Both the position numbers and the translations under genes were made by a program. The notes below the pieces were generated by a model. The model was not told where the DNA came from. It worked only from the letters and a program-made list of their open reading frames with translations, and did no database searches. Positions 5,615 to 43,103 of a DNA stretch of 64,000 bases are shown in pieces. The stretch's first letter is position 1. Each line of letters opens with the position of its first letter. The stretch is from a virus, in IMG/VR virus record IMGVR_UViG_3300028384_001275, positions 40,524 to 104,523 of that record; one strand, written 5' to 3'.

Positions 5615-5841
5615 TGAGTGCAGCAGATAACGCAGAGCAAGCATCACGAAAGATGCTTGCTAAATTACAAGAATATAACAATAAGATTCTTGGTAGTGAT
5701 GACATCGAAGAATCAATTATTGAGCGAGTGAATGCAGCAACAGAATTGCGGGACATATTGCAATCAACCCGAAAAATGCAAGAGTTGGCAGCAAAGCAAC
5801 ATCGACATTCTAAGCAGAGTGAGACTACCGATGAAGTATGA
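5614..5841 (+). CDS. Hypothetical helical protein
   Basis: TAATG coupling to the upstream ORF. Confidence 0.65.
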   Translation: MSAADNAEQASRKMLAKLQEYNNKILGSDDIEESIIERVNAATELRDILQSTRKMQELAAKQHRHSKQSETTDEV

Positions 5842-18092: not shown

Positions 18093-18623
18093 ATGGCATT
18101 TGGATTTCTTAAACCAGTATCATCTTTGAATGGATTGCCTTGCTCAGGGCATGGACTGTGCCTACCCTCTACTATCCACTCAGTGCAGGCATGTGGCACT
18201 CCTGCAATTCCATATCCAATATTGATTAAAAATTTCACATGTTGGTGGCCACCTCTCCCAATGGTGCCAACATTTCCTGTAACTCCTGAGCGAGCCACAG
18301 TTCTTGTGAATCGAGTGCCAGTTAGTGTAATGGGAGATACGTTTTCTTTGCACCCATCTACTTGCACAAATATTGTTGTCCATATATGTCCATGTGGCAA
18401 ATCAATGTGTGCTATACCATCGCCAGTCCCCTGCAGTGCCTTAACGATTGAAGATGGTGGTGTTGGGCATGTGAGAGTTGTAGTTGCAACTAGCTTAACA
18501 GTTTTTGCATTCAAACGACCCATTGCTAGGATGCTAGACCCTCTTGGTGTTGGATTTCCTGGATTTTCACTGCCTTGCTCATCTACAGTTGCGTTTGGGC
18601 ACCCGACTGTGCTATCATCATAG
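18093..18623 (+). CDS. PAAR-like (T4 gp5.4-like) spike tip protein with Cys-rich insertion
   Basis: CSGH, TVLVNRVPVSVMGD...H, TVFAFKRPIARMLD, C...VAFGHPTV. Confidence 0.75.
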   Translation: MAFGFLKPVSSLNGLPCSGHGLCLPSTIHSVQACGTPAIPYPILIKNFTCWWPPLPMVPTFPVTPERATVLVNRVPVSVMGDTFSLHPSTCTNIVVHICPCGKSMCAIPSPVPCSALTIEDGGVGHVRVVVATSLTVFAFKRPIARMLDPLGVGFPGFSLPCSSTVAFGHPTVLSS

Positions 18624-25200: not shown

Positions 25201-28200
25201 CTTCTCGTATTGATGATTTCACATTTTCTTATCAGATTGCAACTGGCACCGAGCTAATCCCTCAGGGAAATATCCTTTTGTCGGTTGACCTGAATAGAGG
25301 TAAGTCTGATATTGCTTCTATTAATAAGGTTATCAGTGAGTTTACGACTAATATCCAAAACTCTTTCTTTAATGATCAATACGTTTATGTAGCTGCATCT
25401 GGTCTACCCAACTATAAGATTGGTCCTTTCACTGGATCGGCATTGATCCCTGGCAACCAACGTAAACTGCTTAGATTCCCCAGAAACGTCGAGACTATCT
25501 CTGAGCGTAAGAATATTAAAGAAAACTCTCCAATCGGTGCATGGGTCAATGGTGTTTCTATTTGGTCTTACAAGTCTATTGAGTCTGTCCAGTTTGGTCC
25601 TCTGACTTCCATCTCGGTTACTTCACCTGGTGAAGGTTATGATGCTGGTGCCAAACCAAACCTTGAGATCAATGGTGGTGGTGGAAGTGGCGCAGTAGCC
25701 TCGGTTGTAGTTGATGGTAGTCTTATAGGATTCTCAGTTACTGCTAGTGGTAGTGGATATACCGAGTCACCTCTAGTTTCCATTGTTGGTGGTGGCGGTA
25801 GTGGTGCAACTGCACAAGCTGTTATCACTGGTGGACGTGTTACTAGAATTTTGGTTGAGCAACCAGGTAGTGGATATACTTCCCAACCATCTGTTTCTAT
25901 TACTGGTGGGGGCGGCACAGGTGCAGAAGCAACTGCACAAGTCCGTGGTCCTATTTCTAAAGTCAACGTTACCAACTTTGGTAGTGGATATACATCACTA
26001 CCTGAAGTTAAAGTTAACTCTGGTGAAGGTGCTCTGGCACAACCCATCGTTATTAATGGTCGTATCGTTTCGATCGCTATTATTAACTCTGGTCAAAAGT
26101 ATACCAGTGCTCCCAATGTCATCATCAATGGTGATGGTTTCGGTGCTATTGCACAAGCAACTATTGGCACAACTGGTGAAGACAAGGGTCGTGTCCTTTC
26201 TATCCAAATCACCAACAAAGGTATTGGTTACACCCAAGGCAATACTACAGTCCGTCTGGAATCTGTTGGTCAACTGGCAACTTTTGAGGCTCAGGTCTTT
26301 AAGTGGAATAAAAACCTTCAGTATGACTTGAGTGCAAAGTATGATAATGCAAGAGGTTACGTCTTTACTGGATACAACAACCAGTTTGGTGGTGAATATG
26401 CTCACTTGAGCGATCCCAAAGAATTGCGTTATGTGGTAGGCGATAATGTTTTCCTCGACCCTGTTACACAAAGATTCCAGGAGCTAGAATCCAACTACAG
26501 ACACTCCCCAATTCTGGGTTGGGCATTTGATGGTAACCCCATCTATGGTCCTTATGGTTACATCGATCCCACTGACCAAAATAGTGGTATCAGAAGACTT
26601 CGCACTTCATACAAGCTGAAAGATAATGTTGTATATGACGAGGATACTAATCCAAATCCCGCTCGTGAAGATGGTCCTTCTCTGACCACTTATCCAGCAG
26701 GCACCTTTGTTACTGACTACACTTATGACTTCCAGTCTGGTGATCTTGACAACTATAATGGTCGTTTCTGTAAGACGCCCGATTATCCAGACGGCACTTA
26801 TGCTTACTTCATCACGATTGATGCATCTGATGCAGGTATTGCTGAATTCCCATATATTATTGGACCTCAGTTTAACTCACTACCCGATGAATGGAATTTC
26901 TCACAGACTGCAACTCAGGAAAATATCCCTGCAGGGGTTGTAAGATATAGAGATCCTTACGTTGACGTTGATATTGATATCGATCGTCAACCTAACCAGG
27001 AAGCAGATGTCCTGACAACTGAGCTTGAAGGTTGGCCAATCATTTTTGAAATTCAAGATAGCAATAATGATGGCATTATTGATGCAAATGAGCAACAAGA
27101 AATCTTGGAGATGTCAGAAGAGGCAACTCTGCAGATTTATGATTACTTCCCCCAAGTCTCCGAAGAGTCTCGTGTTGATATTGAAGTTGAAACTACTACT
27201 CAATTTGAAAATGCACAAATTGATGGTTTTGTGATTGAAAACCCTGGTAAATCCTACCAGGTCAACGATACTGTCTTCTTTAATAATGAAGGGACTGGTG
27301 GATTTGGTGCATCGGCATTTATTGAGTCGGTTAAAGGTCAAAAGATTAGTGCATACACCAAAGAGATCATTAATGACCGCCCCTATGGTGTAATTACTAC
27401 TGAGACAGATCATGAGTTGAGACAACAAGACGAAATTATTGTCAACTCTCGCCCAATTACCGATAATACAAGTAAAACCTTCAAAGTTAAGGTTGTCTCG
27501 GGTATTGAAGGTATTACGATCAATCAATCTGGCACAGGATACAACTCTGACATTCCTCCTACCTTTGAATTGATCACTTCTGCTGGTCAAGATGCCCAGC
27601 TAGAGTTGAAACTGGAGAATACTGGTCAGGTTAACGAAGTTAATATCATCAACTCTGGTAATGGTTACGATTCTGATAATCCCCCTCAGATTCGTATTTC
27701 ACATCCTCAGCAATATAAGAAAACTCGCTATTGGGTATCCGAATTAAATGAATCTGCTGGTAATGTAGTTGTTTTAGACACTCAAACAACTGATGATCGT
27801 CGGACATATGTCTGCGGATATGTAACTGAAGCAGATGGAGACCAGTCTGGATTCCTTGCAAAATTTGATGACTTGGGTCAGTTGGTTTGGAAGCGCACAT
27901 TGCTTCCTCAAAACACTGGTGTCAAAAAAGCAGAATTTGTCAAGATGTATATCAATTCTGCTCCAGAAAACGACCTCATTTATGTTGCAGGCCAAACATA
28001 TGACCCATCAAACACCACTTATAACCCAGATGTTTGGATTGGTCTTTATGAGTCTGGATTTAACAATGCAAATGATCCTGATGGCATTCTGAAGTGGCAA
28101 AAATCGATTGCTGGTATCTCTGGTAGCACTAGAAGAGATTATATCACCACAATTACTCTGGACCAAGAGCAACGTATTTATTTGGGTGGTTATACCGACT

Positions 28201-31200
28201 CCAACTCACCCGATCCCAATGATATGTGGATCATTCAGTGTGATATTGAAGGTAATCTGGTTGAGAAGAGAAAAATCGCGTCTGAAGACGGATCTGAAGA
28301 GCTTATGCAGCTCGAATGGATTGCAGATGACAGATTCTTCTTCGTTGGCGTTAATCAAGAAAATGATGACTGCATTTTTGGCGTATTCTTCTTCGATGGT
28401 GCAAATCTGGAGATCGATTACATCAGACAGATTCCTACTGTTGGTGGTTATGTAAGAAATCCTCGTTTTGTTATTGATGGGTATGATGATGTTGTTCTGG
28501 TGTGGGATATTTACAATAATGCTGCATCCAAGCAAGATAAGATTCAGGTCAATAAGTTTGCTGTTTCTACAGCACAAACCGCATGGGAATGGAGTAAGTC
28601 TTTAACAATTACAGGTGATTTTATTTCTATTAGTCATGCTGGAGTCAGCGTAGACGTATTTGGTAATTATACGATTGTTTCTGACATCGTAGAGTCCGAA
28701 AACTCTCGCTATAGCATGATTACTTACATGAAGTATGATGGCACCATTATTAAAGAATCTAAGATTGTAGATACTGACAATATTGGTTTTGAAGTAAAAG
28801 CACATAGTGTTGATAACTCTGGCGACCCAATTTTGGCTGTTGATCGTCGTAAAGCAGATCAACTTGCTGCATATAGATTCGATACTACCGATACAATCAA
28901 TGATGATGTCACAAAACGTGATTTGGGCACGTTTGTTTATTTTGATGCTGACGAAACATCCCTCGACACGGCAATTTACAAATTTGGCACCTCTTCTCTT
29001 AAATTGAATGATGTAGCACCAGTTAGTATCACTGGATTTGCACAGACAACTCAAGAGTGGAGTTTGCGTGGTTGGTTTGCAATGAATACCACAGCTCATG
29101 GCACAGATCATAAGCCTGTGCTATTTGCAGTAGACCCTGTAAGTGGTAGTAATGCTTATATGGTCCTAGATGGTGATTCTTCATCTGCAGACTATGGTAA
29201 GGCATTGATTTTCATCAATAATGCCCAAGTTGCTTCTTCTACCTCTACAACTAACTGGACAACCTTTGCATCTGCTGCATGGGTCCATGTGACCTTCCAG
29301 AAGCGTCTGGAATCCCTGGGTCTGTATCAGTATGAAGTTTATATCAACGGTAACCTAATTACTAATTTCCAGTCCACAACTGACATTGGTCTTGATGATG
29401 TAGTCTTGGGTGGTCCTATTTCCAGTCCCACCACTGCTAATTCTTTCCGTGGTCATATTGACGATATTGTGGTAGATGACGATGCACCATATACTTCAAC
29501 TTATACCATTCCTACCGCATATATTCCTGTTACAGATTCGGTTTCAGATATTGCTCTAATTAAATTTGATCGGAATCATACAAAGCGTAATGATTCCTAT
29601 ACAATGACTGGTCTTGATAACTGGTCCACTTTTGCAATGCAAGCAAGTGAGGCAGCAACTGTTTGGACCTCTCTTAATCAGTCTGCAATTAGTGTTTGGG
29701 AAATTGGACCTGGTGGTCTGCAGATTTTGGACATGTCTCAAACTTCTGCCAACCTCCAACCTGCAACTTACACATTTAGTGATGAAAAATTTGAATATGC
29801 AACTAGAACATCGACAATTCCTTCGCCTCTGGGCAAGCAGATGTCGATTGAGGCAAATGTCATCAGTAAATTCTATCTGCGTGATGCACTATATCAGAAG
29901 ATTGACAATGTTAAGGAATTTACCTTTAACCAGAATGTAAAACTGACCAAAGGCAGTATTCTACAGCAGTTTAACTCTGCTGGAATTACCCAAGCCTATG
30001 GCACTATTGTCGAAGTGCCTGTAGGCACTCTTACCAATCCTGGATTTGGCACTAAGTATAAGATTGGTAAAATCTTTGGCAACTTCAATAATGATAATAG
30101 ATTCCGTACAACTGCCAATGATGTCAATCAAATAACAGGGGAATATTTCAAAACTGAAGAAGAGGAATCTCCTTGGCAAGCATCTACTGCATATGCTGCA
30201 GGAGATCGAGTATATAATGCTAAGAGAATTTACGAAGCACAAGGAGCTGGCACTTCTGGCACTATTGCCCCAGTCCATACTGCAGGTGCAGCATCTGATG
30301 GTGTTATTAACTGGTCTCTAGTTGCTGATGCTGGATCATTCGATATTGATTTAACACAACATCCATATCCCAGACCCCAATACTTAGGTTTGGATATGCC
30401 TGAGTGGCAACCACATATCCTGTATGCAGTTGGGCAAAAAGTTTGGTATCGTCTTAATGTTTATGAAGTAGCCCCATCTGGTGGTGGCGTTACTACCACC
30501 ACACCACCCACTCATACTACTGGTGATGTTTCTGATGGCACTGTAACATGGAGATTTGTCTCCACAAGCGAAGCTATCAGTGCTAAGGCTCGCCTTATGG
30601 CATACGATCAGGGCAACAACTACACAGTTGAGATCGTTAAAGTGCATCCTGGATCCACGTTTATCCCTGGAGATGTAGTTTCTCTGAATTCAAATAATAT
30701 TGATCTTGCCGATGATGAAAAGAGTGTAACTATTTCTGGATTTGCGTCTGTCAAGGAAATCAAGGTTACTGCACGTCTTGAAAAAGATATTCTTCGCACC
30801 ACTGAGGCAAGGACTAATCTGGTGTATTGCACCTCCAATAGTCCACATTACTTCAAAGAAGATGAAATTATCTTCAGCGAAGGATTCCAAGGAGATCAAT
30901 TCAATGGATCTTTCTTTGTTGATCAAGTTATTGGATCTAGAGAATTTACTTTTGCTATCCGTGCTACTGCAGTAAGTGATCCTGCTTTTGAGCAAAATGC
31001 TATTGCAAGAGTCAACATTTATGGCAAACACCCAACGTTGGAATTTACTAGAGATCATCAATATGTCTTCGATGTATCTGATCCTTCTAACTTTGGATAT
31101 TATCTCTCCTTCTCCCAGGATAACCAATTCAAGTTGGAGTATTCCTTCAATAATATTACTAGAGAGGGCACCCCAGGCATTAATGCTGCTGGATCTACAG

Positions 31201-34200
31201 CACCTTTTGTCAAATTCTCTGTCCTGGGTCAGGTTACGAATATCTCGTATTACTTCGATCCATCACGGACTGGTGCAGATTCACCTGTTGGATCTAATTC
31301 GTTTATTGACGTTATTACAACTCCATATCAAGGTATTTTCAGAATTTCTGAAGTACCTACTGATAAGCAATTCAAATTCCCCCTGCTCAAAGAGCCTGAG
31401 AGAAATGCTGCTGAAGTTATTGATGATGAGTTTGACAACCCATATTCTTTCTACTCCACAACTTCGACAAGAGCAGTTGGACCTATCAATAGTATCAAAC
31501 TGGTTTCTCCTGGTGGATTCTATCAGAAACTGCCTATTATCTCTGATATTGCTTCTTTCCGTCAAATTGAAAAATTGGTTATCAATGACGGTGGCACTGA
31601 ATATGCGCCTGGTGTATATTCGCAAATTGATGTTGATGGAGACGGTGAAGGTGGTAAAGCAACTATTACAGTTGAATTTGATGACGAAGTTGGATCTGGC
31701 ACTATCACTGAGGCAGTTATAACCGATCCTGGTAAAGGTTACACCACTGCTAGTATTGATATTGATGGTATTCCTGGAATCTTAGGATCAACTCTCGCTG
31801 GATCTGGTGGATCCGTCTCTGTTATTATTCCAGACGAGGGTGAGGGTGCATCCGTCTTCCTGACTGGTAAGAATATTGGTAAGATCAGAAGACTGAAGAA
31901 TAATGAATTTGGTTTCGGATATTCTCATGACTATACTCTCAAACCTGAGATTACCTTCCCCGTTAACCTGCAACTCTTTAACACTTCGATTCTTTCTGAA
32001 ATTAAGATCACTAACCCTGGTAGTGGTTATACATCCACACCTGCTGTAGTCATCGAAGGTGGTGGTGGCGAAGGTGCAGACGCAGAGGCAGTTGTCAAGA
32101 ATAATCGTCTTTCTGAAATTATTATCAAGAATCCTGGTGCTGGTTACTCTTCTGAGCCTACTGTCACACTGAAGTCTGAGTTTAACTACGTTGTCAACCT
32201 CGACCTCAACTATCTGCAGTTTAACTTCCCTCACGGTATTACAACTGGTGCAGAAGTGCAATTTAGAGCAGATGATGTTGGTAGCACCGAGGGTCAGTTG
32301 CCTAGACCTTCTAGCGCAGGTCTGACTGCATTGATTGAAGGGCAAACATACTATGCTATTGCTGGTAATGTTAATGGTCTGGAATCTGATCAGATTAGAT
32401 TTGCATTGACCGCCGCTGCAGCTGCATCTGGAGACTTTATTACATTCCTGACTCAAGGTGAAGGTCGTCAAGTCCTTCTTACTGAAGTGTTTGGTGGTGC
32501 TGCCGAGGCAGTTGTTGAAACATCCAGATTCTTGGAAGGTGAAACTGTTTTCCAAGGGACAAACATTGAGCAAGCGACAGCAACAGGCACGGTTTCTAAC
32601 AATACTGGTTGGCAGATTGGTCCTAAAATTCTTAAGATTGTTGATTACACTGGTGATTGGGAATCGGGCGAAAGAGTAACTGGCACCATTTCTAAGGCAT
32701 CTGGTGTAATTGATAACTTCAGCATTGCTCGTGGCGTGTTGAATATTGGATCTTTGACTCGCACACCTGGTCGCTTTATTGATGACGTAGGTAAACCCTC
32801 TGAGATTGTCCAGAAGATTCAAGACTCCTTCTTCTATCAAAACTTCTCTTACGTTATTAAGTCTGAAACTCCAATCACTAATTGGAAAACTCAGATTCTT
32901 GAAAATAATCACCCAGCTGGATTTAACCTCTTTGGTCAGTTAGAGCTATCTGGTGGTAAGGATGTCTCTGGTCGTAAGATTGGCACAGAATTCACCAAGC
33001 AGGTGAATATCAATAACTACAGCAATGTTAATGAGATTACTTCATTCGGTGCTGCACAACCCATCTACACAGATTACAACAACACTGAAGTCCTCTTCCG
33101 TAAGAAGCGTCTGACCTCCTCCGAGGAAATTCTGACTTCTATTGTTAAGAAGCTGGATGATATCTCAGGTAGATTCAATGGTATCGATAAACAATTCCCC
33201 ATCACCGTTGAAGGTGAGCAAGTTATTGTCAATCAAGATCAGTTGATGATCACTTTGAATGGTGTGATTCAGGCACCTGGCGATTCATACTCTGTGGTCG
33301 GTGGTAACCTGGTCTTCTCTGAGCCTCCTAAGCCTCCCTCTAAGGTCAACTACAGAAATATCTCTATTAGCACAATTCCCATCACCAGAATCAATCTATA
33401 TTCTGGTCAAGTTGGCATTCCTAACTATGGTATTTTCCCCACTCTGGGTCAGCAGATCCAAGGAGAAAACTCGGATGCAGTTGCTACTGTTATTGGATCT
33501 GGCACTAATCACATTGATGTTATCAATATCAATGGCGTATTTGAGTTGAATGAAGAGATCGTCCGTGGATCACTCTTCTCAGCATTGGTCCAGTCGATTG
33601 AAGTCCAGAATACTAATACAATCTATGAATTTGGTGAGTCTATCACCAATCTGAATGGTGACACTGCAATCATTGAAGAAAATAACCTTAGTGATGGTGT
33701 CATCTCCGACGACCTGGTTATTTCTAAGACATCGGGCACAGCTAAGTATGAGACTGGCATTTTCAATATCAGACTAAATGATTATATTATCTCTGCTAAG
33801 TCTAATATTGCTGCTCAAGTTACCAGCATTTCACCTTACAGAGATCCAAATACAAGTGATATTGTAGATGAATTGATCATCAACCAAGGATCTTCTTTCT
33901 TTGGTCTGCTGTTTGAGCGTTTGGTTTCTCTAACCAATCCTAACGTAATCCTGGATGATATTTCTAAGTCCTCGATTACACCCACTGAATTGTATGATGC
34001 TTCAGAGCGTATCAACGCCGACTTCCTCGACTTTGAGGAAATTAGAAGCACTGAGATCGTTTATACAAATCTTGCAAATGGCACTTTTGAAGAAGGCGAT
34101 ACCATTATCAACAAAGAAGTTGATTATGGTAATGCAACCTCGGTATATCATGGTGGAGCTGCAAATAGATTCAAGGATTCCTCAAGAATGATTCTTGGGA

Positions 34201-37200
34201 ATAAGCAAGAAATTATTGACTTCGGTGAAGCAGAAATCGCAGTTTGGCATCCTGGATTCTATTTCCCAGGAGATGTTATTACAAATTCCTGGTCTAGATT
34301 CTCTGATGCATATCGTCTGATTCAGCGTAACAAGCTGTATATCGCTGCTCGTGCATACGATGAGATGATTACTCAGTATCCTTCGCTGTCTGTCCCCGAC
34401 GAGGACAAGTGTCTGCGTGACCTGGAATACTACATCGATGCAATCTCCCTGGATATCCACAGAGGTGGCAATGTTTATACTCGCAAATTTGTCCTTAAGT
34501 ATTTTAATGCTGGCACATTTGATTATGTGAATAGCGAAGTTGCTGAGACTCGTTTTGGATATGAAAAAGCGAAAGATTGGATGATCAAGGCACTTACAAA
34601 CAATATCGATCAAGATTACACTGGTCTCAGTGGTCCTAATGCAGGTATTGTCTTCAAACCTTGGAATGAAATTGATAAAGGTGGTAGTAGGGGATTGGGT
34701 ATTACTGCTGACCCATCACCTAATGATGATTATGGCACAGCTGGTAGTAATGCTGATAATACCGACGTTAATGTTTGCACCGATGTGCAAGATGCGATCA
34801 CTACTCTGTATGGAGTGATTGATGAAGCACTGGAAAATGGCAATACAACAGATCTTCCTGATGAGACGGAAGGCACTTATTCTGTTGGTCAAACCAAGTG
34901 TCGTCGTGATGTGGGTCTTCTGGTCGATGCTATCGCGGGTGATGTTAGCCAAGGGGGCAATTACAACATTGTCGAATTCGCTAAGAGATATTTTGATGCA
35001 GATGGCAATCCTATTACTAACGGTCTTATTGGTGAATATGCAGAATCTCTAACTGCATTTGAAAAGGCAAGAGACTTGTGCTACAGAGCGATTAATAACC
35101 TCCTCTATTATCAGGTTAATACTACTACACCTGAAACTGGTTACATGTTGAATGATCCCACCACTTATGCTGGTCCTTACAGCGGTGGTGAGACCTCAGT
35201 AACTCAACTGGATGTGAGTGCAGCATCTTATACTGCTTCTACTGGTGAATTGATATTGACCGTTGGGTCTGGTCATGGTCTGACGACTTCCGATACTCTG
35301 TATGTCCGTCCATATTCTCTGAGATTTACTTGTGATAGTGATAATCATGCAACTTTCCATGATTATCCTCGTAGTGGTGATCCTGCATTCAACAGTGCAA
35401 GAAATATTACCGCCACAAGCGCGACCACGCTTACTATAAACATAGGGGCTTCTACGAATAGCAGCTTCACTCCTACTGCAGCAACATATAACACTCAGAC
35501 AGGTGATCTGACGCTCACAATCGGCACTCACACTTTGGGTCTGAATGATTATGTGACGATTGCAGACGATGCTCTGACTTTCACCTGCACTCAGGATGAT
35601 GATGCAACCAGTCACACATATCCTCGGTCTACTGACCCTGCGTCTGGACAGAGACTGTTTATTACAGCAAAAACTGACACCACGATTACAGTCAATGTTG
35701 GTGCTTCTCCTGTCGGTCAACAGTATGACCACACCTTCGTTTCTGCAGTTGCCAACTCGGTTACCTACGGTGGTGGATATACCCACACCTTTATCAAGGC
35801 ACTCGACAATGCAGTTTACTCAGGTGGTGGCACACGGGCACAATATTTTGATCAAAACTACTCCTCTGGTAATAACCAGCAGATTGGTAACTGTGCAAAC
35901 GTCCAGGCATATATTCACACCCTGGTCAATATCGCATCAACTGCACTTGAGGCAGGAGATCTAACTAATATCAACGCTCTATCTTCGGTCACTGACGGCA
36001 CATTTGTTGATGGTGAAACTGTCAGGACTACCAAGCTGGGATATGATGATAAGTCCACTGGTCTGTTTACGACCAATGACATCATTAAAGGAGTTAGCTC
36101 CAACGCTTCCTTTACTGCAGTTGGCGTTAATTCTGGTCTGAAATGGTTGTTTGCTGGAAATATTACAGGGACATTTACTATTGGTGAATACATCACAAAC
36201 TCCAGACTAACAAATCAAAATAGCGTCACACAATCTGTCATTACTAAGAAAACTGAATTGTCTGGAACTAAGTCCATTGCATTCCCTGCAACTGGATACT
36301 TGAATATGCCAGAAAGCAATGATTTTGCTTTTGGCACTGGTGAATTTACAATTCAAGGTTGGATTCGCGTCCCCAACGTTGTGGGACTCAAGACTTTGTT
36401 TGATCTGCGTCGAGTATCAACTACAGGATTAAGATTTGTCCTTGATGGCACAACTTTGAGAGCATATAATGGCACATCTCAACTGGTATCTGGAGGAACT
36501 TTAGCAGCAGATACTTGGTATCACATTGCTCTAATCCGATCTTCTGCTGTTACTAGAATTTATCTAGATGGCACACAAGTTGGTAGTGATGCTGCTGACA
36601 CTAATGATTATGGTTATGCGCCTCTTTACATTGGTGCTGACTTTAATGGATCTAATAGCTTCCAAGGTTGGATGGATAATGTGGTGGTCAAGAAGGGCAC
36701 TGCTGACTATAGCTCGGCATTTACTGCTCCTACTCAGATCAATTATGCCAACCAAAATAATGATATTGTCTTCGGTCTTGACGGTGAAGGTCCCTTCATC
36801 CTGTCTACAACTGAAACATATGCAACTCTGACTGGACAAAAAACTTCTTCTGCTACTGTTAAGAAGGTAGATTATACTGCAACCTCCTTGATTATTAAAG
36901 ATGTTGATCTTGGTAGAGCAGTATACAAGAATTTGGCTGATATTGTTGAGTTGAATGATGAGTGGATTGCTGAAGAAGCAGTCGGCAGAATGAAGGCGAA
37001 ATTCCCTGATTTCATCATGCCTGGCGATAACGCAGCTGAAGGTCTCTATACAGGCACCAACTACTGCTTGCGTGATACCAAGGACTTCATCATCGGATCT
37101 CTGGTTAAAGATCTCAGAGAGGGTGGCAACTATCATACCCTCTACACAGGTCGGACCTATCTGGAAGCATCTGGAAAACTGAAGCACGTTGGTAATGAGA

Positions 37201-40200
37201 TTCTTCAGACCCTCTATACTTGGAATGAAGTTTATGACATTATTGAAAACAGCATTGTCAGAAACAACGCCGATACTGGTGTGGGTGTCTACACCACGAG
37301 ACTGAGAATTCCTCAGACTCAATATCCTACGGTGACTTCTACTGTCCAAGCATTCTTGGATGAGACTCGTCTGCTGATTGACGACCTGTTGGAAGTCCTG
37401 GCACCTACTGGTGATCGCTTCCGTGATGGTGGTGTTAATATCTGGAAAAACCGCGATTACATCGCTGAGGAGACTGTTGGTTACCTGCAGAATAAGTATC
37501 AGGCAACTCTCAACGGCACTGATTATGATTTCCTTGAAATGCCTGGTGGTGGTGAGTCCTCTTGTAAGCGCGATATTCGCACACATATCATTCCTGCGAT
37601 CATTGGTGATCTTTGCACAGGCGGCACCTATCAGACTGAAAAGATCCTCGATTCCTATCTGGATTCTCAAAACAACATTCTTTATGTTGAAGAAGAGTTG
37701 AATCCAATGATTGATGCCTTCCATTTCACTAACATGTTGTGTCAGAAGGCTGTTAATAATCTTCTGCTTTCTCCTGGTGAGACTGCAGGTGAGTTGAGTG
37801 TCCCAGCGTGGGTCCAAGACGATTACTATTCTCCTCTTTATACATCTCGCGCTGCTTATAAAGATAATACGCTTGAGGTTGATCCTCAAGGATATCCTCA
37901 AAATAATCGCAATTCCAATGATCGTTATATTGATGCTGTCAACACCATTCAGCGCAATAAGGATATTATTGCTATGGAATCTGTTGCAACCATGAATGAC
38001 TTCTCCAAGTTTGAGAATCTGGCCATTCCTGGCGGTCCTGTCAACTGCGAAGATGACGTTAGAGACATTATTGATGCAGTCTCCCATGACCTTCTCTTCG
38101 ATTGTAATGAGAAGACTTATGACGCAGCTGCTCTCTATGTTGAGACTGAGAATAACTCACTGAAGCATATTGAGTCTGAGTGGGAAGCATCTGTTACCAC
38201 TTATAAGATCGCTCGCGACATGATGACGTTGACCATGCGTAATGGATTTGGTCGTGACTATGTGGATGGAAACGATCCTCTGACAGTGCCCGTCCAGTCA
38301 TACGAGCAGAATCCTAAGGAGGACATCTACAGAGATGCTGCTGATGCAATCGATGCAAACATCAGATACATTGCTGAGCAAGCAGTTGATGCTGGAGAAA
38401 CTCAGTATCCTTCACTGGTTATTCCTGGCGGATCTATTAACTGTGTCCATGACGTTACTGACATCCTCCGTGCTCTGGTATTCAACCTGAAGTATGGCGG
38501 TAACAATATGCTTCAATATGCAACTGAATTCTATGTGAATGATGCAGGTAACCTGCAGCATATCTCCTCCCAGTCTGCTGAAACTATTTGGATCATTAAC
38601 AAGGCAAGAGATTTTGTTAAGCGTGCAATGAAGGGTCAGATCATCACCAATACTTCTGGTTATGGTGTTGCTCAACGATTCTACGATAGTGTTGCTAAAC
38701 CCACCAACCAGCTACGTCCTTCCAACCAGACTGATGGTGTTGATCTGACAGCATTTAATAACTTGGTTACTAGAAGTTTTACCAACGGCACAACCGACAT
38801 TAATAATTCTGAAAACTCGGCAACGGGTCAGGCAAATAATGAAGACCTTGTTTGTCGTGTCACCACAACTCTCCCCTCAGGCACTCCTACAGATGGCGTC
38901 CTCTGGGAAGGTGGTGGAAGTGATTATGGATCTTGGATTGGTATTAGAGATAGTGGCACATACTTCCGTCTCCGTGCTGGTGATGGTGGCAACTCCTTCG
39001 CAGGTGGTGCAACTTACACAGATACTGGTCTGGCATTGCTGGATATTCCCATCTCCGATCTGTCAGATTATTTCGATGGTGGCACTCATGAGATCGTCTG
39101 GCAGATCAATGTTGGCGGTAATACTGCAACAGGTCCTGGTCTCGTCAAGGTCTGGTTTGATGGAGTCCCCGTGGGCGAAGCACAGACACCTGGCACTAGC
39201 AACACTGGACTTGGTGCTAACTCTGGTTATTGGTCTGGTGGTGGCAATGGTGGTTTCGGTGCAACTTCTGGTGTTTCTGGTGGTGTCCCATCAGGCGAGC
39301 CTACAGCAGCATGGGCATATACAACTTCTGATCTGGATTACTATCGCGCACGTCGTGTTGATGAGTCCTACACAGGCACTGAGACCGATGAGGTTAGCAG
39401 TGAGATTGATACTCTGATGGCATTTGTTACTGATGGTCTGGCATCTCCTGCTCAGGTTAATAGTCGTGGTTACGATATGCCTATCATCTGGCCAATCAAG
39501 TTTACCCCTGAAGTTACTATTAGAGATCTAGGTATCACATATGATACTGCTGGTGGTGGTCAAGATGCTGATGGCACTTGGAATCAGACTTGCTCTCAAG
39601 TTGCATCTTCTATCGATACCCTGATGGACATCGTTATTGATACAATCTCCGAGGCTGCAAATAATAATGTATATCATCTGACTAGCATCACCAAAACTAC
39701 ACCAGCAACTAATAACACCATATATCAAGCTGGCACATGTTATAACGTAACCTCTTCGATTGATACTCTCTTTGAGATCATGACAGACACCCTTGGTGGT
39801 GGCACTGAGAATGATAAGATTGTTGCTAATAGACTTCTGTTTAATTCCCATGCGGTTGCACAAAGAGCATTTGCAGATACTCAAGCACAATTCTCAGATA
39901 CGAATCTAACTATTGAATTTGCCGAAAAACTCACTAAGGCAGTCCGTTATGACCTTATTACTGGTGGTAATGCAGGAGCATTTGCACTTGCACAAGAATG
40001 GTTTGACGGTGAGGGCAATTTCATCGCATTCACTGATGTTATTCGCACACACATCATTTACTGCATGACTCGTGTTAGAGAATATATTAAGTCTGTAATG
40101 TATTTGATTGATACTGATCCTGGTTGGGATACTTATGATCTCTATAATCCTGCAGAAAGATTTGAATGGAATCAAGAAGCTGCAGAGTTTATTATTGACT

Positions 40201-43103
40201 CTTCTATTAACCCCATTGAATATGCTCTGGAATTGTCTAAATTCCCAACAGAAGCGAAGGTAACTTTCATTGCATCTACAGATGTCCAGAATCTGTCTAA
40301 TTCTTATGAAATGGGTGTTGACTACAACACCGATCCCGCTCTGGTATCATTGACTCCTGTGGTGGATGTTGGATTTGATCGTCAAGAAGATAGAATCAGA
40401 ATTAATCGTACTAACTTCTTTAGAAGAGGTGATATTCTTCAGTATATCCCTGTGCAGGGAGCAACAACACTTTCTGGCGTTGGTGACATTGGACAATCTT
40501 ATTATTATGTGATTACAGGAACTGCAACTTGGTTTGAAATCGGTCGTCATTATATCCACGATGGTCGTTTCAGAGATCTCAGTGCAGATACTGCAAATAC
40601 AGGATCTCACCAAATGCAAGTTGTGAGACGGAGTGGTGTGAATCGTGCAACAATCAAGTATCCTGAAGATCCTTCAGAGACACCAATCCAGGGTGGATTT
40701 AATCCTGCAGACGTTTTGGTTGGATCAACTTCCAATACAACTGCTGAGGTTTCTCGCATCGATCAAAACGTTGCAAAAATTCGCACAATCACAACTTACT
40801 ATAAACTTACTGGAGTTGGCACAGATAACTTCATTAATGGAGAAACTGTCCAAGTCCAAGGTGCAGCATCCAATAATGGTAAGATCTATCAGACAAGGAA
40901 TAAAGATGCAGATAATGAAACGTTTGTGAAGTTGATTAGTATTGCTGGCACAATTTCTGCTGGTGATGTATTGGAGGGTGTTACTTCTGGTGCTACTGGC
41001 ACAGTTTCTTCTACTGCAGGAGACATTAATGAGCGTATGTTAGTTAATGTCAAGTCTGGATCTTACGCTACAGATGACTGGTTCTTTGATAAGAATTCAG
41101 CAACTGAAGCATACATGTCCACCTATACCAATAAGTCTGGATCACTTACTGGCAATACTGGAGGTCGTGTTACTATTGATGTTGAAACTATTCAGGGTGC
41201 ATGGGATGCTGGCGATATAGTTTATGGAAGTGATACTGATTATATTCTTGATATTAAGGGTATTTCTGGCACACAGATTCAGCTCAATCAATATATTCAC
41301 GGCACCAATGTTTATCAACTTGAATTGGGCACGGCAATTACAGACACTGGTGTTTCTGATACTTTCCGTCCAGGCGATGAAATCTCTCTGCTAATTGGCA
41401 CAACTGAAAAGAATCCAGGTTTCCGTGCAACAGTTACCAAATATATTAATGGCACTAATGCAGATCCAGAGGATCCCAATTATGGTATCCATCGTTTATG
41501 GATTGGTAATTTGAGAGATGTTGGCGCTGGAGCTGAGATTTCTGAGGTCACTAACAGCAATAACAACATCGGTAAATTGGATATTGGATCCAACTTCCCA
41601 ACAATCTATGCACCTGTTTCTTCTTATACAGACACTGGATATTCTTCTTATGGCAAAGTAATTGCTATTGAGCAGAGTGGTATCACAGCAACTATTTGGG
41701 TTGAAAATGCTGTTGGTGAATTTGTAGATAATATGACTGTCAAATCTGATGATGGATGGGGTGGTGCTGTCACATCTGCACGGACACTTACTGGACGAGT
41801 TGATCGTTACTTCCGAGGTTTCGATGGCACTCAGACTCAGTTTGATATCACAATTTCCAACGGTGAGGCATATTTCCCAGATGCTGCTGGACACTTGTTG
41901 GTATTTGTCAATGGTGTGCTTCAACCCCCTGGCGCTAATGCTTCTTACGTTGCCTTCTCCGATAAGGTTAACTTCACTGAGGCACCTGACATTGGATCTG
42001 AATTTATTGGTTACTACGTCGGCAAACTCCGTCAACTTGATGACATTAGTTTTGAGTTTGATTCGCTGAGATCTTCCTTCAACCTGAAACGTGACGGTCT
42101 CTTCTACTCGCTGACTCTGACTGAGGGTGTTTCTTCTAACACAATCCTACCCGAAAATAACATCATTGTTTCGCTCAACGGTATCATCCAGGAAGCTGGA
42201 ATTGCTTATGAGTTGGTTGGATCTAGAATCATCTTCGCAGAAGTGCCTCGCGCAGGTAGCACATTCGTTGGATTCTCCTACATCGGATCTGACGCTGACG
42301 TTATCGCAGCAACTGTGATTCCTCCTGTTGAATCTGGCGACCAGTTGAGAATTGAAGGTGAGGAATTTAATCGTGAGGTTGCTCTGATTGAATCTTCCAA
42401 TTCTTTGATTACATTTGAATATACTGGATCCGTTAAAGGTCGTAATGCAGACGCACTATCCACAGTCATTGGTGGTCAGGTTACTAATGCAGTGCTTACA
42501 AATTCTGGTGATGGTTATACCTCACGTCCCAACGTTGACGTTATCTCCTCCACTGGGTTTGACGCTCAGATCAAGGCGCTGATGGGTATTGCTCGAATTG
42601 ATGTGAAGTCAAGTGGTGTTGGATATCAATCTCCTACCGTGCTGATTGATAATGAAGTCCCTGATGACTTCACAACTCCTACAGGCACTCCAATTAATGG
42701 TGGATTTGATATTTACGCAGGCGAAGGTCCTCAAGGTGAAGGCGGCACAACAATACCCGCTGGCACCATTGCGATCGTCCAAGATCCTGTCAATGTCACC
42801 GTCAACCAAGGTCAAAGTGCATCCTTTAGTGTGGTTTCCACAGTGACTAATAGTCAAACTATGAATTATCAATGGCAGAAGAAGGAGTATGGCACACAAG
42901 TCTGGTCCAATATTATTGGTGCTAACCAGTCTGTATATAACACTGGAGTAACAGTCCAAGCTGATGATGGTGATGAATATCGTGTAGCAATCACTGCTGC
43001 TGGCGCAACTCCTGTGTATTCCTTGTCTGCTATTCTCACAGTCCAGACTGGAGCTACTGTAATCAGCAACTTCAGTCCTGCCAACATCTTCTCTAGCAAC
43101 TAA
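22206..43103 (+). CDS. gp7: Giant gp7-like baseplate wedge/structural protein, 6965 aa, multidomain
   Basis: Follows gp6; QLPEFIRE...FLFQYYK N-terminus, IKNISDFYASKGT and HPAGFNLFG motifs; GxGY repeats, YHYH-like, propeller, LamG, CBM5/12-like, helical CxRD repeats, C-terminal Ig. Confidence 0.8.
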   Translation: MPKQNINVSDRVENQLPEFIREEDTQLVNFLFQYYKSQEKTGRPYDILNNLLNYLDLDAYSTRELTGSTELLNDIDTANTKIEIESIDGFRDKNGSIMIDNEVIYYETVTRGPDAIITPGLSYPQFKKKEQQLENPFPLFDGTRTAFPLSFLGTPVTPPSAEHLIVIAYNQLMIPGVDYTLDNSTINFTSAPRARTGADNSDFTQFTYLVGYADQTIKTLDTVDGSVYNGKKEYPLKFNTENYSPTSESGLLVNKNGRLLTPYEDYTIFYDKLIFDNPVSGSDAIHIRSVEYIAPSYGSGAVGIVEVDDSGSVSKIRSKVGGSGYRLDFNPKVSIQSNTGRGATARSLVGGVKNINLIDGGQGYTSYNPPIPIVARPSSANGSPAKLSLTVDDETGQVSEISLDNSGSGYEFIPAITFVNPGGAKISGATIDSEGRLNQGSIVVDNGGLNYTNPPMVYIDPAPIGGIDAKATARINQESQVYEILITNRGRGYTTAPRVAIIDPVGAQVLDVTVASGSVTNIEMLTGGSGYTDAPSVYIVDDRKDSAGVSIGGTGATAVATIFNGEITDINITNFGQGYSTTEPPKIFIAEPKAARASLEVGFGEVTGYDIIESGAGYTPSAFEGCSRGVSGAVRFDNFNNEIYAKEDQLRQSSHNEGATVVSLDSLFIKQVFDKFRRQYLPTIEIDYTKINPIQVIKNISDFYASKGTELATQYLFKILFGEDVSLYYPRDEIISPSAATWVVDTVLRAQLIEGDPNNLIDSQVNQYADAVDQNIKAANALIENVITIIEGTDTIYELAISEETLEGEFKIPYKTTLVEPLTTDGQIITVDSTIGWPERNGTIRINDEEVVQYKEKSLNQFIECTRSKNGVVEDWDPGTTITSDIYIYVNRGTAQECKLRILGIAEAGTTVLDDTGSYYIPGDKLKVANLGSTAVEERLSSWLYNVKKLISVTSITPGGINNQTATVVCRNPHGLLVSDQVTVYGANPVVYNGTFTVTSRIDDFTFSYQIATGTELIPQGNILLSVDLNRGKSDIASINKVISEFTTNIQNSFFNDQYVYVAASGLPNYKIGPFTGSALIPGNQRKLLRFPRNVETISERKNIKENSPIGAWVNGVSIWSYKSIESVQFGPLTSISVTSPGEGYDAGAKPNLEINGGGGSGAVASVVVDGSLIGFSVTASGSGYTESPLVSIVGGGGSGATAQAVITGGRVTRILVEQPGSGYTSQPSVSITGGGGTGAEATAQVRGPISKVNVTNFGSGYTSLPEVKVNSGEGALAQPIVINGRIVSIAIINSGQKYTSAPNVIINGDGFGAIAQATIGTTGEDKGRVLSIQITNKGIGYTQGNTTVRLESVGQLATFEAQVFKWNKNLQYDLSAKYDNARGYVFTGYNNQFGGEYAHLSDPKELRYVVGDNVFLDPVTQRFQELESNYRHSPILGWAFDGNPIYGPYGYIDPTDQNSGIRRLRTSYKLKDNVVYDEDTNPNPAREDGPSLTTYPAGTFVTDYTYDFQSGDLDNYNGRFCKTPDYPDGTYAYFITIDASDAGIAEFPYIIGPQFNSLPDEWNFSQTATQENIPAGVVRYRDPYVDVDIDIDRQPNQEADVLTTELEGWPIIFEIQDSNNDGIIDANEQQEILEMSEEATLQIYDYFPQVSEESRVDIEVETTTQFENAQIDGFVIENPGKSYQVNDTVFFNNEGTGGFGASAFIESVKGQKISAYTKEIINDRPYGVITTETDHELRQQDEIIVNSRPITDNTSKTFKVKVVSGIEGITINQSGTGYNSDIPPTFELITSAGQDAQLELKLENTGQVNEVNIINSGNGYDSDNPPQIRISHPQQYKKTRYWVSELNESAGNVVVLDTQTTDDRRTYVCGYVTEADGDQSGFLAKFDDLGQLVWKRTLLPQNTGVKKAEFVKMYINSAPENDLIYVAGQTYDPSNTTYNPDVWIGLYESGFNNANDPDGILKWQKSIAGISGSTRRDYITTITLDQEQRIYLGGYTDSNSPDPNDMWIIQCDIEGNLVEKRKIASEDGSEELMQLEWIADDRFFFVGVNQENDDCIFGVFFFDGANLEIDYIRQIPTVGGYVRNPRFVIDGYDDVVLVWDIYNNAASKQDKIQVNKFAVSTAQTAWEWSKSLTITGDFISISHAGVSVDVFGNYTIVSDIVESENSRYSMITYMKYDGTIIKESKIVDTDNIGFEVKAHSVDNSGDPILAVDRRKADQLAAYRFDTTDTINDDVTKRDLGTFVYFDADETSLDTAIYKFGTSSLKLNDVAPVSITGFAQTTQEWSLRGWFAMNTTAHGTDHKPVLFAVDPVSGSNAYMVLDGDSSSADYGKALIFINNAQVASSTSTTNWTTFASAAWVHVTFQKRLESLGLYQYEVYINGNLITNFQSTTDIGLDDVVLGGPISSPTTANSFRGHIDDIVVDDDAPYTSTYTIPTAYIPVTDSVSDIALIKFDRNHTKRNDSYTMTGLDNWSTFAMQASEAATVWTSLNQSAISVWEIGPGGLQILDMSQTSANLQPATYTFSDEKFEYATRTSTIPSPLGKQMSIEANVISKFYLRDALYQKIDNVKEFTFNQNVKLTKGSILQQFNSAGITQAYGTIVEVPVGTLTNPGFGTKYKIGKIFGNFNNDNRFRTTANDVNQITGEYFKTEEEESPWQASTAYAAGDRVYNAKRIYEAQGAGTSGTIAPVHTAGAASDGVINWSLVADAGSFDIDLTQHPYPRPQYLGLDMPEWQPHILYAVGQKVWYRLNVYEVAPSGGGVTTTTPPTHTTGDVSDGTVTWRFVSTSEAISAKARLMAYDQGNNYTVEIVKVHPGSTFIPGDVVSLNSNNIDLADDEKSVTISGFASVKEIKVTARLEKDILRTTEARTNLVYCTSNSPHYFKEDEIIFSEGFQGDQFNGSFFVDQVIGSREFTFAIRATAVSDPAFEQNAIARVNIYGKHPTLEFTRDHQYVFDVSDPSNFGYYLSFSQDNQFKLEYSFNNITREGTPGINAAGSTAPFVKFSVLGQVTNISYYFDPSRTGADSPVGSNSFIDVITTPYQGIFRISEVPTDKQFKFPLLKEPERNAAEVIDDEFDNPYSFYSTTSTRAVGPINSIKLVSPGGFYQKLPIISDIASFRQIEKLVINDGGTEYAPGVYSQIDVDGDGEGGKATITVEFDDEVGSGTITEAVITDPGKGYTTASIDIDGIPGILGSTLAGSGGSVSVIIPDEGEGASVFLTGKNIGKIRRLKNNEFGFGYSHDYTLKPEITFPVNLQLFNTSILSEIKITNPGSGYTSTPAVVIEGGGGEGADAEAVVKNNRLSEIIIKNPGAGYSSEPTVTLKSEFNYVVNLDLNYLQFNFPHGITTGAEVQFRADDVGSTEGQLPRPSSAGLTALIEGQTYYAIAGNVNGLESDQIRFALTAAAAASGDFITFLTQGEGRQVLLTEVFGGAAEAVVETSRFLEGETVFQGTNIEQATATGTVSNNTGWQIGPKILKIVDYTGDWESGERVTGTISKASGVIDNFSIARGVLNIGSLTRTPGRFIDDVGKPSEIVQKIQDSFFYQNFSYVIKSETPITNWKTQILENNHPAGFNLFGQLELSGGKDVSGRKIGTEFTKQVNINNYSNVNEITSFGAAQPIYTDYNNTEVLFRKKRLTSSEEILTSIVKKLDDISGRFNGIDKQFPITVEGEQVIVNQDQLMITLNGVIQAPGDSYSVVGGNLVFSEPPKPPSKVNYRNISISTIPITRINLYSGQVGIPNYGIFPTLGQQIQGENSDAVATVIGSGTNHIDVININGVFELNEEIVRGSLFSALVQSIEVQNTNTIYEFGESITNLNGDTAIIEENNLSDGVISDDLVISKTSGTAKYETGIFNIRLNDYIISAKSNIAAQVTSISPYRDPNTSDIVDELIINQGSSFFGLLFERLVSLTNPNVILDDISKSSITPTELYDASERINADFLDFEEIRSTEIVYTNLANGTFEEGDTIINKEVDYGNATSVYHGGAANRFKDSSRMILGNKQEIIDFGEAEIAVWHPGFYFPGDVITNSWSRFSDAYRLIQRNKLYIAARAYDEMITQYPSLSVPDEDKCLRDLEYYIDAISLDIHRGGNVYTRKFVLKYFNAGTFDYVNSEVAETRFGYEKAKDWMIKALTNNIDQDYTGLSGPNAGIVFKPWNEIDKGGSRGLGITADPSPNDDYGTAGSNADNTDVNVCTDVQDAITTLYGVIDEALENGNTTDLPDETEGTYSVGQTKCRRDVGLLVDAIAGDVSQGGNYNIVEFAKRYFDADGNPITNGLIGEYAESLTAFEKARDLCYRAINNLLYYQVNTTTPETGYMLNDPTTYAGPYSGGETSVTQLDVSAASYTASTGELILTVGSGHGLTTSDTLYVRPYSLRFTCDSDNHATFHDYPRSGDPAFNSARNITATSATTLTINIGASTNSSFTPTAATYNTQTGDLTLTIGTHTLGLNDYVTIADDALTFTCTQDDDATSHTYPRSTDPASGQRLFITAKTDTTITVNVGASPVGQQYDHTFVSAVANSVTYGGGYTHTFIKALDNAVYSGGGTRAQYFDQNYSSGNNQQIGNCANVQAYIHTLVNIASTALEAGDLTNINALSSVTDGTFVDGETVRTTKLGYDDKSTGLFTTNDIIKGVSSNASFTAVGVNSGLKWLFAGNITGTFTIGEYITNSRLTNQNSVTQSVITKKTELSGTKSIAFPATGYLNMPESNDFAFGTGEFTIQGWIRVPNVVGLKTLFDLRRVSTTGLRFVLDGTTLRAYNGTSQLVSGGTLAADTWYHIALIRSSAVTRIYLDGTQVGSDAADTNDYGYAPLYIGADFNGSNSFQGWMDNVVVKKGTADYSSAFTAPTQINYANQNNDIVFGLDGEGPFILSTTETYATLTGQKTSSATVKKVDYTATSLIIKDVDLGRAVYKNLADIVELNDEWIAEEAVGRMKAKFPDFIMPGDNAAEGLYTGTNYCLRDTKDFIIGSLVKDLREGGNYHTLYTGRTYLEASGKLKHVGNEILQTLYTWNEVYDIIENSIVRNNADTGVGVYTTRLRIPQTQYPTVTSTVQAFLDETRLLIDDLLEVLAPTGDRFRDGGVNIWKNRDYIAEETVGYLQNKYQATLNGTDYDFLEMPGGGESSCKRDIRTHIIPAIIGDLCTGGTYQTEKILDSYLDSQNNILYVEEELNPMIDAFHFTNMLCQKAVNNLLLSPGETAGELSVPAWVQDDYYSPLYTSRAAYKDNTLEVDPQGYPQNNRNSNDRYIDAVNTIQRNKDIIAMESVATMNDFSKFENLAIPGGPVNCEDDVRDIIDAVSHDLLFDCNEKTYDAAALYVETENNSLKHIESEWEASVTTYKIARDMMTLTMRNGFGRDYVDGNDPLTVPVQSYEQNPKEDIYRDAADAIDANIRYIAEQAVDAGETQYPSLVIPGGSINCVHDVTDILRALVFNLKYGGNNMLQYATEFYVNDAGNLQHISSQSAETIWIINKARDFVKRAMKGQIITNTSGYGVAQRFYDSVAKPTNQLRPSNQTDGVDLTAFNNLVTRSFTNGTTDINNSENSATGQANNEDLVCRVTTTLPSGTPTDGVLWEGGGSDYGSWIGIRDSGTYFRLRAGDGGNSFAGGATYTDTGLALLDIPISDLSDYFDGGTHEIVWQINVGGNTATGPGLVKVWFDGVPVGEAQTPGTSNTGLGANSGYWSGGGNGGFGATSGVSGGVPSGEPTAAWAYTTSDLDYYRARRVDESYTGTETDEVSSEIDTLMAFVTDGLASPAQVNSRGYDMPIIWPIKFTPEVTIRDLGITYDTAGGGQDADGTWNQTCSQVASSIDTLMDIVIDTISEAANNNVYHLTSITKTTPATNNTIYQAGTCYNVTSSIDTLFEIMTDTLGGGTENDKIVANRLLFNSHAVAQRAFADTQAQFSDTNLTIEFAEKLTKAVRYDLITGGNAGAFALAQEWFDGEGNFIAFTDVIRTHIIYCMTRVREYIKSVMYLIDTDPGWDTYDLYNPAERFEWNQEAAEFIIDSSINPIEYALELSKFPTEAKVTFIASTDVQNLSNSYEMGVDYNTDPALVSLTPVVDVGFDRQEDRIRINRTNFFRRGDILQYIPVQGATTLSGVGDIGQSYYYVITGTATWFEIGRHYIHDGRFRDLSADTANTGSHQMQVVRRSGVNRATIKYPEDPSETPIQGGFNPADVLVGSTSNTTAEVSRIDQNVAKIRTITTYYKLTGVGTDNFINGETVQVQGAASNNGKIYQTRNKDADNETFVKLISIAGTISAGDVLEGVTSGATGTVSSTAGDINERMLVNVKSGSYATDDWFFDKNSATEAYMSTYTNKSGSLTGNTGGRVTIDVETIQGAWDAGDIVYGSDTDYILDIKGISGTQIQLNQYIHGTNVYQLELGTAITDTGVSDTFRPGDEISLLIGTTEKNPGFRATVTKYINGTNADPEDPNYGIHRLWIGNLRDVGAGAEISEVTNSNNNIGKLDIGSNFPTIYAPVSSYTDTGYSSYGKVIAIEQSGITATIWVENAVGEFVDNMTVKSDDGWGGAVTSARTLTGRVDRYFRGFDGTQTQFDITISNGEAYFPDAAGHLLVFVNGVLQPPGANASYVAFSDKVNFTEAPDIGSEFIGYYVGKLRQLDDISFEFDSLRSSFNLKRDGLFYSLTLTEGVSSNTILPENNIIVSLNGIIQEAGIAYELVGSRIIFAEVPRAGSTFVGFSYIGSDADVIAATVIPPVESGDQLRIEGEEFNREVALIESSNSLITFEYTGSVKGRNADALSTVIGGQVTNAVLTNSGDGYTSRPNVDVISSTGFDAQIKALMGIARIDVKSSGVGYQSPTVLIDNEVPDDFTTPTGTPINGGFDIYAGEGPQGEGGTTIPAGTIAIVQDPVNVTVNQGQSASFSVVSTVTNSQTMNYQWQKKEYGTQVWSNIIGANQSVYNTGVTVQADDGDEYRVAITAAGATPVYSLSAILTVQTGATVISNFSPANIFSSN

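Follow-up and report, generated by a model that had tools for sequence, protein, structure and literature searches.

The window analysed here, a 64,000-nucleotide stretch of an IMG/VR viral fragment (104.5 kb; completeness estimate, 58%), contains a giant virion open reading frame (ORF) whose helical repeats raise the question of whether a cyanophage virion protein can contain phycobiliprotein domains and, if so, whether these domains bear bilins. A single protein makes three cyanophage questions directly testable: the substrate of CpeT, adsorption that takes place only in the light, and the virion as a photoreceptor. To our knowledge, no virion-borne photoreceptor is known. Light-dependent adsorption itself is documented: in darkness P-HM1 and P-HM2 fail to adsorb and P-SSM2 and P-SSP7 succeed (Liu et al. 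2019, PMC6628666). The adsorption of S-PM2 is described there, with reference to earlier work, as dependent on light and independent of photosynthesis, and light-dependent adsorption is put down to unknown light-sensitive receptors or tail fibres (PMC6628666, citing Jia et al. 2010). The role of phage-encoded CpeT has been called "unresolved" (PMC3037559).

A gp7-position baseplate protein with seven repeat cores

The repeat-bearing protein occupies the position of gp7 among the baseplate genes of a T4-like cyanomyovirus. The window has a T4-like order of baseplate genes, in which a PAAR-like gene and a gp6-like gene are followed by the 6965-aa ORF and then by further wedge and fibre-connector genes. 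Orthologues of the ORF are annotated as baseplate wedge initiator gp7 or as virion structural protein, and the PHROG families that it matches are baseplate wedge subunit; its score against Pfam Baseplate_wedge, 22.6 bits, lies under the 27-bit cut-off. The ORF resembles T4 gp7 in its place in the baseplate module, right after the gp6-like gene, and differs from it in being about seven times longer.

A family HMM finds exactly seven helical cores of about 105 aa in the window, all of them in this ORF and within 34296-40103, which agrees with the original prediction of about seven repeats. Comparison of the ORF with itself reveals repeats centred on Cys4069, 4232, 4954, 5120, 5281 and 5413. The ten Cys codons on which that prediction was built (34410, 34899, 37065, 37563, 38046, 38442, 34776, 35892, 39591 and 39738) are all in-frame Cys codons, and the context quoted for them is right. 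The features of the region are as follows.

18093-18620: PAAR-like gene of the baseplate module
20014-22197: gp6-like wedge gene, directly 5' of the 6965-aa ORF
22206..43103, plus strand: ORF of 6965 aa for a giant virion/baseplate protein, at the gp7 position, next downstream of the gp6-like wedge gene
34296..34604, plus strand: core 1 (aa ~4031-4133), KCLRD with Cys4069; 23.1 bits against PF00502 alone
34776..34838, plus strand: domain 1 helix H, N-capped by Cys4191, a candidate β-153-type site; Cys invariant in 49 copies
34818..35102, plus strand: core 2, N-terminally truncated, KCRRD with Cys4232
35187..35708, plus strand: two β-rich modules of ~85 aa, each with an invariant FTC Cys (4376, 4461), between core 2 and the presumed helix H
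35892..35960, plus strand: Cys-helix with Cys4563, similar to aa 4181-4237; presumed helix H of domain 2
36291..36689, plus strand: Laminin_G_3 / ConA-like lectin domain (E 2e-18)
36921..37268, plus strand: core 3, YCLRD with Cys4954
37323-37391: H-like helix after core 3, in which Ser replaces Cys
37416..37763, plus strand: core 4, SCKRD with Cys5120
37923..38246, plus strand: core 5, NCEDD with Cys5281
38325..38639, plus strand: core 6, NCVHD with Cys5413
39591..39653, plus strand: Cys-helix with Cys5796
39738..39800, plus strand: Cys-helix with Cys5845
39816..40103, plus strand: core 7, degenerate, without Cys; 21 bits against the family HMM

The regions inserted among the cores at aa 4320-4695 and 5490-5789 gave no match in a Pfam scan. 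Read by eye, a third, Cys-less H-like helix lies near aa 5725-5745, ahead of the helices with Cys5796 and Cys5845. The expectation that the repeats conserve their CxRD cysteines holds in part: six of the seven cores keep both Cys and Asp and four have a strict CxRD, but the seventh has no Cys, and two of the six site-1 motifs (CEDD and CVHD) lack the Arg.

These cores belong to a large family of 1228 proteins (E<=1e-3), each the representative of a 50%-identity cluster, many of them 2000-7900 aa long and containing up to 34 domain copies per protein; most units have one Cys only. Conservation was assessed in 667 near-full-length metagenome copies of less than 60% identity, and the consensus of these non-redundant copies agrees with the repeat consensus claimed at the outset. 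Cys is present in 96% of them, Arg at C+2 in 91%, Asp at C+3 in 98%, Asp at C+14 in 97%, Tyr at C+30 in 98% and the helix-B Asn in 85%; Asp at C+9 is near-invariant in the family. Since the residues at C+9, C+14 and C+30, near-invariant and acidic or polar, are atypical for phycobiliproteins, the pocket may differ from theirs. Across 12 orthologous loci that share 49-70% identity, 12 Cys stay the same wherever an alignment was possible: six at site 1, four of helix H and two in the inserted β modules. The remaining six Cys of the region vary.

The globin fold of the repeats and the helix-H cysteine

The repeat region matches the Pfam phycobilisome family PF00502 with 46.6 bits (E 4.7e-12; cut-off 22.2), and core 1 exceeds this cut-off by itself. 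Profiles built from the seven repeats, from 56 copies on several contigs and from 20 copies of the core-plus-helix-H module were compared with all PDB sequences, and all three found only phycobiliproteins and engineered derivatives such as smURFP (best E of 7.6e-7, 3.9e-6 and 1.9e-4, respectively). Phycobiliproteins were reached only by profiles; a single-sequence phmmer search of the repeat region against the PDB gave no match, and the allophycocyanin and phycoerythrin matches in NCBIfam were all sub-threshold. The profile alignments pair the repeat Cys with that of KC(A/L)RD, bilin Cys82/84, to which it had been equated from the beginning, and the helix-B Asn and GG(N/T) have the same spacing as in phycobiliproteins.

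Structural models lead to the same family. The AlphaFold2 model of core 1 has five helices (pLDDT 82.6, pTM 0.75), and its Foldseek matches (TM about 0.7) are confined to phycobiliproteins and engineered biliproteins derived from these. In an exhaustive structural scan, the highest scores (Z 11.1-11.9) go to allophycocyanin, phycoerythrin β and the bilin domain of ApcE, with photocobilin bilin domains next (Z about 10) and haem globins lower, near Z 7-8. Bilin-binding globins make up all ten of the best PDB matches of the core model, and phycobiliproteins or ApcE account for eight of the ten. PF00502, the PDB profiles and the AlphaFold models thus all agree with the globin/phycobiliprotein fold first proposed for this region, and we regard it as next to certain, in homology as in fold, that the seven repeats truly belong to the phycobiliprotein superfamily of globin domains. 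The X/Y helices are absent: the PF00502 match to core 1 begins at profile position 33, and structural alignments begin at chain residue ~26-33 with helix H modelled and at ~20-23 for the core-only model. As modelled, the repeat domains contain helices B, E, F, G and H without the X/Y dimerisation helices, so the α-β monomer and disc cannot form.

The Cys-containing helices downstream of the cores had been described as closing helices. Their Cys context is right, but they are not separate elements; they are helix H of the same fold. Residues 4020-4216, comprising core 1, the loop and the Cys-helix, were folded with 20 diverse homologues (pLDDT 80.9, pTM 0.82), and in the resulting model a confident helix begins right after Cys4191. 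The best match of this model is phycoerythrin β, with a Z of 15.4, an rmsd of 2.6 A and 145 residues aligned. The alignment spans chain residues 29-184 and so reaches the chain C-terminus, which identifies the Cys-helix as helix H of the phycobiliprotein fold. The top eight matches are all phycobiliproteins or ApcE, and with helix H included Foldseek returns almost only β subunits. Sequence profiles of the core-plus-helix-H module do not align helix H to phycobiliproteins, and a generic closing-helix HMM gives weak matches only. In β subunits, helix H is N-capped by the second bilin Cys (β-153/155/158). Cys4191 immediately precedes helix H in the model, whose best matches are β subunits, and may thus correspond to the β-153-type Cys at the level of secondary structure; to that level the early comparison with the second site of β subunits is compatible with the model. 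Across 49 copies of the arrangement core 1, loop, Cys-helix, core 2 (27-44% identity), Cys4191 and Cys4232 are conserved in 100% and Cys4069 in 96%.

We also considered the second Cys as a feature of the whole family and rejected it. The motif C..V...I..L follows just 172 of 1603 family cores, any Cys is found in 9% of typical tails, and over the whole family only about 9-11% of units have a helix-H Cys. Judged from these sequences, the second Cys site is specific to a subfamily. Insertions of other domains in the G-H loop often place helix H a long way downstream of the core to which it belongs. Cores 4, 5 and 6 are consecutive, with no helix H between them, and are followed by an inserted region and then by the helices of Cys5796 and Cys5845, which with the Cys-less helix ahead of them make three closing helices for three cores; this order of cores and helices suggests a nested or swapped topology for domains 4-6.

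Distribution and linkage to cpeT

To our two tblastn queries, 214 and 321 of 50,697 phage records responded, all from Synechococcus or Prochlorococcus phages bar one marine single-cell virus. No record from other hosts was identified in this set, in support of a restriction of the domain to cyanophages. A megablast search of the repeat region against phage records gave no match. Every viral fold match that bears a name is a tail or structural protein of a Synechococcus phage, and in public records domain-bearing proteins go by "tail protein", "structural protein" or "hypothetical". When 185,579 prokaryote genomes were scanned for the pattern, there were two matches, both on contigs of cyanobacterial metagenome-assembled genomes (MAGs), one of them of phage size (194 kb). 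One metagenomic protein cluster, on contigs of 2-5 kb, is labelled as a Nanopelagicaceae MAG; we take this label to be mis-binning, and it remains a caveat. A literature search returned no description of phycobiliprotein-fold domains in cyanophage virion proteins.

The original prediction tied the domain to phage bilin genes, and this link was assessed in 24 complete cyanophage genomes, chosen by accession and mostly blind to domain status (three of them, S-PM2, P-HM2 and syn9, were already known from tblastn to carry the domain). Seventeen have the domain, in 1-15 copies. cpeT is present in 16 of these 17 and in none of the seven genomes without the domain, namely P-SSM2, P-SSP7, S-SM2, S-SSM7, S-CRM01, S-TIM5 and P-TIM68 (Fisher p 2.3e-5, phylogeny ignored). 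The exception is S-SKS1, which has one domain and no cpeT. In S-SSM4 and P-SSM7 cpeT was detected only weakly; for the latter phage, Sullivan et al. 2010 also list a CpeT-like gene. The contig of the window encodes cpeT as well (34.6 bits). In S-PM2, S-RSM4 and Syn1, which represent three genera, a domain-bearing "short tail fibre" gene is preceded on its own strand by cpeT, at a distance of 0.7-1.5 kb, and the fibre gene of Syn1 encodes five full or near-full cores with a helix-H Cys after each.

Within the panel, the distribution of the genes for bilin reductase and haem oxygenase does not follow that of the domain. P-SSM2 has ho1 and a bilin reductase gene with zero domains, and S-PM2 has ten domains with neither gene; co-occurrence with ho1 and pebS/pcyA was therefore rejected. 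Neither pebS nor ho1 was found on the window's contig, a viral fragment estimated to be 58% complete. The predicted association with bilin genes thus stands for cpeT, in occurrence and in the synteny of three genera, but not for ho1 or pebS/pcyA.

Domain counts can also be set beside the adsorption phenotypes. P-HM2 has six domains and S-PM2 ten, and P-SSM2 and P-SSP7 have none; the presence of the domain parallels light-dependent adsorption in these four phages, a correspondence that is suggestive only.

Proposed bilin attachment, its alternatives and known relatives

We know of no report of pigmented cyanophage virions or of bilin-modified peptides from them. In characterized proteins CXRD is a bilin site, at which the Cys forms a thioether and the Arg and Asp hydrogen-bond the bilin, and representatives of BBAG-1 and BBAG-3, distant globins with CXRD, bind bilins without lyases (Rockwell et al. 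2023, PMC10151467). A plausible course of events can be proposed on this basis. The giant protein would most likely be made late in the infected cyanobacterium, amid free bilins and lyases, and each core would take a bilin by a thioether at the Cys of K-C-x-R-D, either by self-attachment as in ApcE and the BBAG globins or through host lyases. Domains with a Cys at the start of helix H could receive a second bilin at this β-153-type site from the phage T-type lyase, CpeT. Tens of bilins would then be attached to the baseplate or fibres of the virion, and their most plausible use would be a light-driven conformational switch that gates adsorption. Covalent bilin binding by the phage domains is the best-supported mechanism, one that we think has roughly an even chance of being correct. 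Light-gated adsorption, an attractive consequence of it, is possible but doubtful. The full proposal, that cyanomyovirus virions carry their own bilin photoreceptor, that CpeT is the lyase of the helix-H site and that light switches the adsorption apparatus, is put forward tentatively and may well prove incorrect. If true, a virion bilin photoreceptor would account for the dependence of adsorption on light in S-PM2, P-HM1 and P-HM2, and the substrate that has long been sought for phage cpeT would be at hand.

The domains could also have arisen by capture of an ancestral phycobiliprotein gene from the host and be reused, without a chromophore, as a compact helical building block of fibres or baseplates, in which CxRD serves folding or contacts between domains. 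With up to 34 copies per protein the domain resembles a generic shaft repeat; its X/Y helices are missing, the family has extra conserved residues of its own, and one repeat of the window lacks the Cys and two the Arg. However, an unpaired Cys in 96% of 667 copies, together with the bilin-contacting Arg and Asp, is hard to explain by folding alone. Non-motif Cys vary freely, and a building block without a chromophore would not account for the association with a bilin lyase gene, in occurrence and in gene order. We consider a purely structural use a serious possibility, short of a probable one.

The extracellular location of the protein, the solvent-facing position of the conserved Cys in the phycobiliprotein fold and the two additional invariant Cys of the inserted β modules would fit a role in thiol chemistry, in which interdomain or intersubunit disulfides or bound metal stiffen the fibre in oxidising seawater. 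Such a role is improbable: most family units have a single Cys, the Cys is always within the bilin-contact triad, and neither the restriction to cyanophages nor the linkage to cpeT would have a reason. We think it very improbable that the domains act inside the infected cell, binding bilin as a sink or as a decoy for host lyases or NblA, with any pigment of the virion incidental. Phage bilin genes are indeed expressed during infection, in a role that has been called a mystery (PMC3037559), but the domains reside in late structural proteins annotated or identified as virion components, and ho1 and pebS do not track them. Overall, the best explanation of the locus is that the virion contains chromophorylated phycobiliprotein-fold domains, a reading whose chances of being right and of being wrong we judge to be about equal.

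With or without a bilin, the phage domain constitutes a large, unexplored branch of the phycobiliprotein superfamily, and being compact and monomeric it could interest engineers of bilin-based fluorescent tags. Its relatives outside the phycobilisome include the BBAG globins or photoglobins of heterotrophic bacteria, which are likewise distant relatives of phycobiliproteins that keep CXRD (or CXQD) (PMC10151467); likened to the phage domain by description only, they are small soluble proteins encoded beside bilin-synthesis genes and not virion repeats. Photocobilin bilin domains, with chains among the structural matches at a Z of about 10, also resemble it. With the light-harvesting phycobiliproteins (CpcA/B, CpeA/B and ApcA/B) the phage domains share the PF00502 match and the globin fold of helices B to H. 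Their cores have the K-C-x-R-D motif and GG spacing of α subunits, and in some domains a long G-H loop and a Cys at the helix H N-cap are reminiscent of β subunits. They differ from phycobiliproteins in forming 1-34 repeats within giant virion proteins, in the insertion of other domains in the G-H loop, in the lack of X/Y helices, in extra conserved Asp, Asn and Tyr residues and in an identity of only about 15-20%. ApcE, the core-membrane linker, likewise contains a phycobiliprotein-fold domain inside a large multidomain protein, and its structure 4xxi_A is among the best matches of the model (Z 13.2, rmsd 2.1 A). ApcE attaches its own bilin without a lyase. It is set apart from the phage protein as a part of the cellular antenna that has a loop insertion, a Cys located elsewhere and one such domain per protein rather than a tandem array.

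Arrangement of cores 4-6 and the closing helices downstream

Three phycobiliprotein-like cores of the 6965-aa giant protein are consecutive (cores 4, 5 and 6; window 37416-39800 for the region examined), and no helix H, the closing helix of the phycobiliprotein fold, lies between them. Downstream of these cores is an insert of approximately 250 aa, followed by two helix-H-type helices that begin with cysteine:

37416-37763, +, core 4
37923-38246, +, core 5
38325-38639, +, core 6
39591, +, start of the Cys5796 helix
39738, +, start of the Cys5845 helix

A possible third H-like helix, judged by eye and lacking a cysteine, is located near 39380-39440, upstream of both Cys-helices. This order of cores and helices suggests that each of domains 4-6 sits within the G-H loop of another, or else that the domains have swapped helices.

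Additional modules of the giant protein and its relatives

A beta-rich module of approximately 85 aa, in which the cysteine of an 'FTC' motif is invariant, is present in the giant protein and at two related loci, L017 and L018. This FTC module has no Pfam family; several giant fibre proteins contain it as a repeated insertion beside their phycobiliprotein-like cores. The giant protein also has two recognizable domains, given here with its FTC modules:

26274-26825, +, YHYH domain (PF14240; E 1.6e-28), N-terminal half of the protein
35187-35708, +, two FTC modules
36291-36689, +, Laminin_G_3/ConA-like lectin domain (E 2e-18), between two groups of phycobiliprotein-like cores

The Laminin_G_3/ConA-like domain could be a carbohydrate-binding part of the protein. 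The next ORF (43118-44707) holds a segment related to the YHYH domain.

The ORF bearing the orthologous phycobiliprotein-like module is 9152 aa on two other contigs, G003 and G004, compared with 6965 aa in the window. The phycobiliprotein-like module is also carried by a 193,981-bp contig that has been binned as a Synechococcus MAG (L088, JBJBBP010000001.1) and matches a cyanomyovirus genome in length; this contig is probably a phage genome inside a Synechococcus bin.

The fibre gene, cpeT and bilin genes in other cyanophages

In two genera, a 2OG-Fe(II) oxygenase gene lies between cpeT, the T-type bilin lyase gene, and the domain-carrying fibre gene:

165307-165888, S-PM2 (NC_006820), 2OG-Fe(II) oxygenase gene
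20572-21144, Syn1 (NC_015288), 2OG-Fe(II) oxygenase gene

In the RefSeq record of S-PM2, the tail-fibre CDS (NC_006820 168556-173383) encloses 16 annotated tRNAs, which seem to result from misplaced coordinates and not to be genuine genes.

Among the 24 complete cyanophage genomes of the co-occurrence panel, the sole exception to the pairing of domain and cpeT is S-SKS1 (NC_020851), a non-Kyanoviridae myovirus without cpeT that encodes one phycobiliprotein-like core (17457-17798) within a 928-aa ORF. Searches of the P-SSM2 genome (NC_006883) detected a bilin reductase and ho1 and neither cpeT nor the domain; cpeT and the domain were likewise not found in searches of S-SSM7 (NC_015287), for which PebS and Ho1 are reported (Sullivan 2010, Table 3). 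The bilin genes of P-SSM2 and S-SSM7 need a different explanation.
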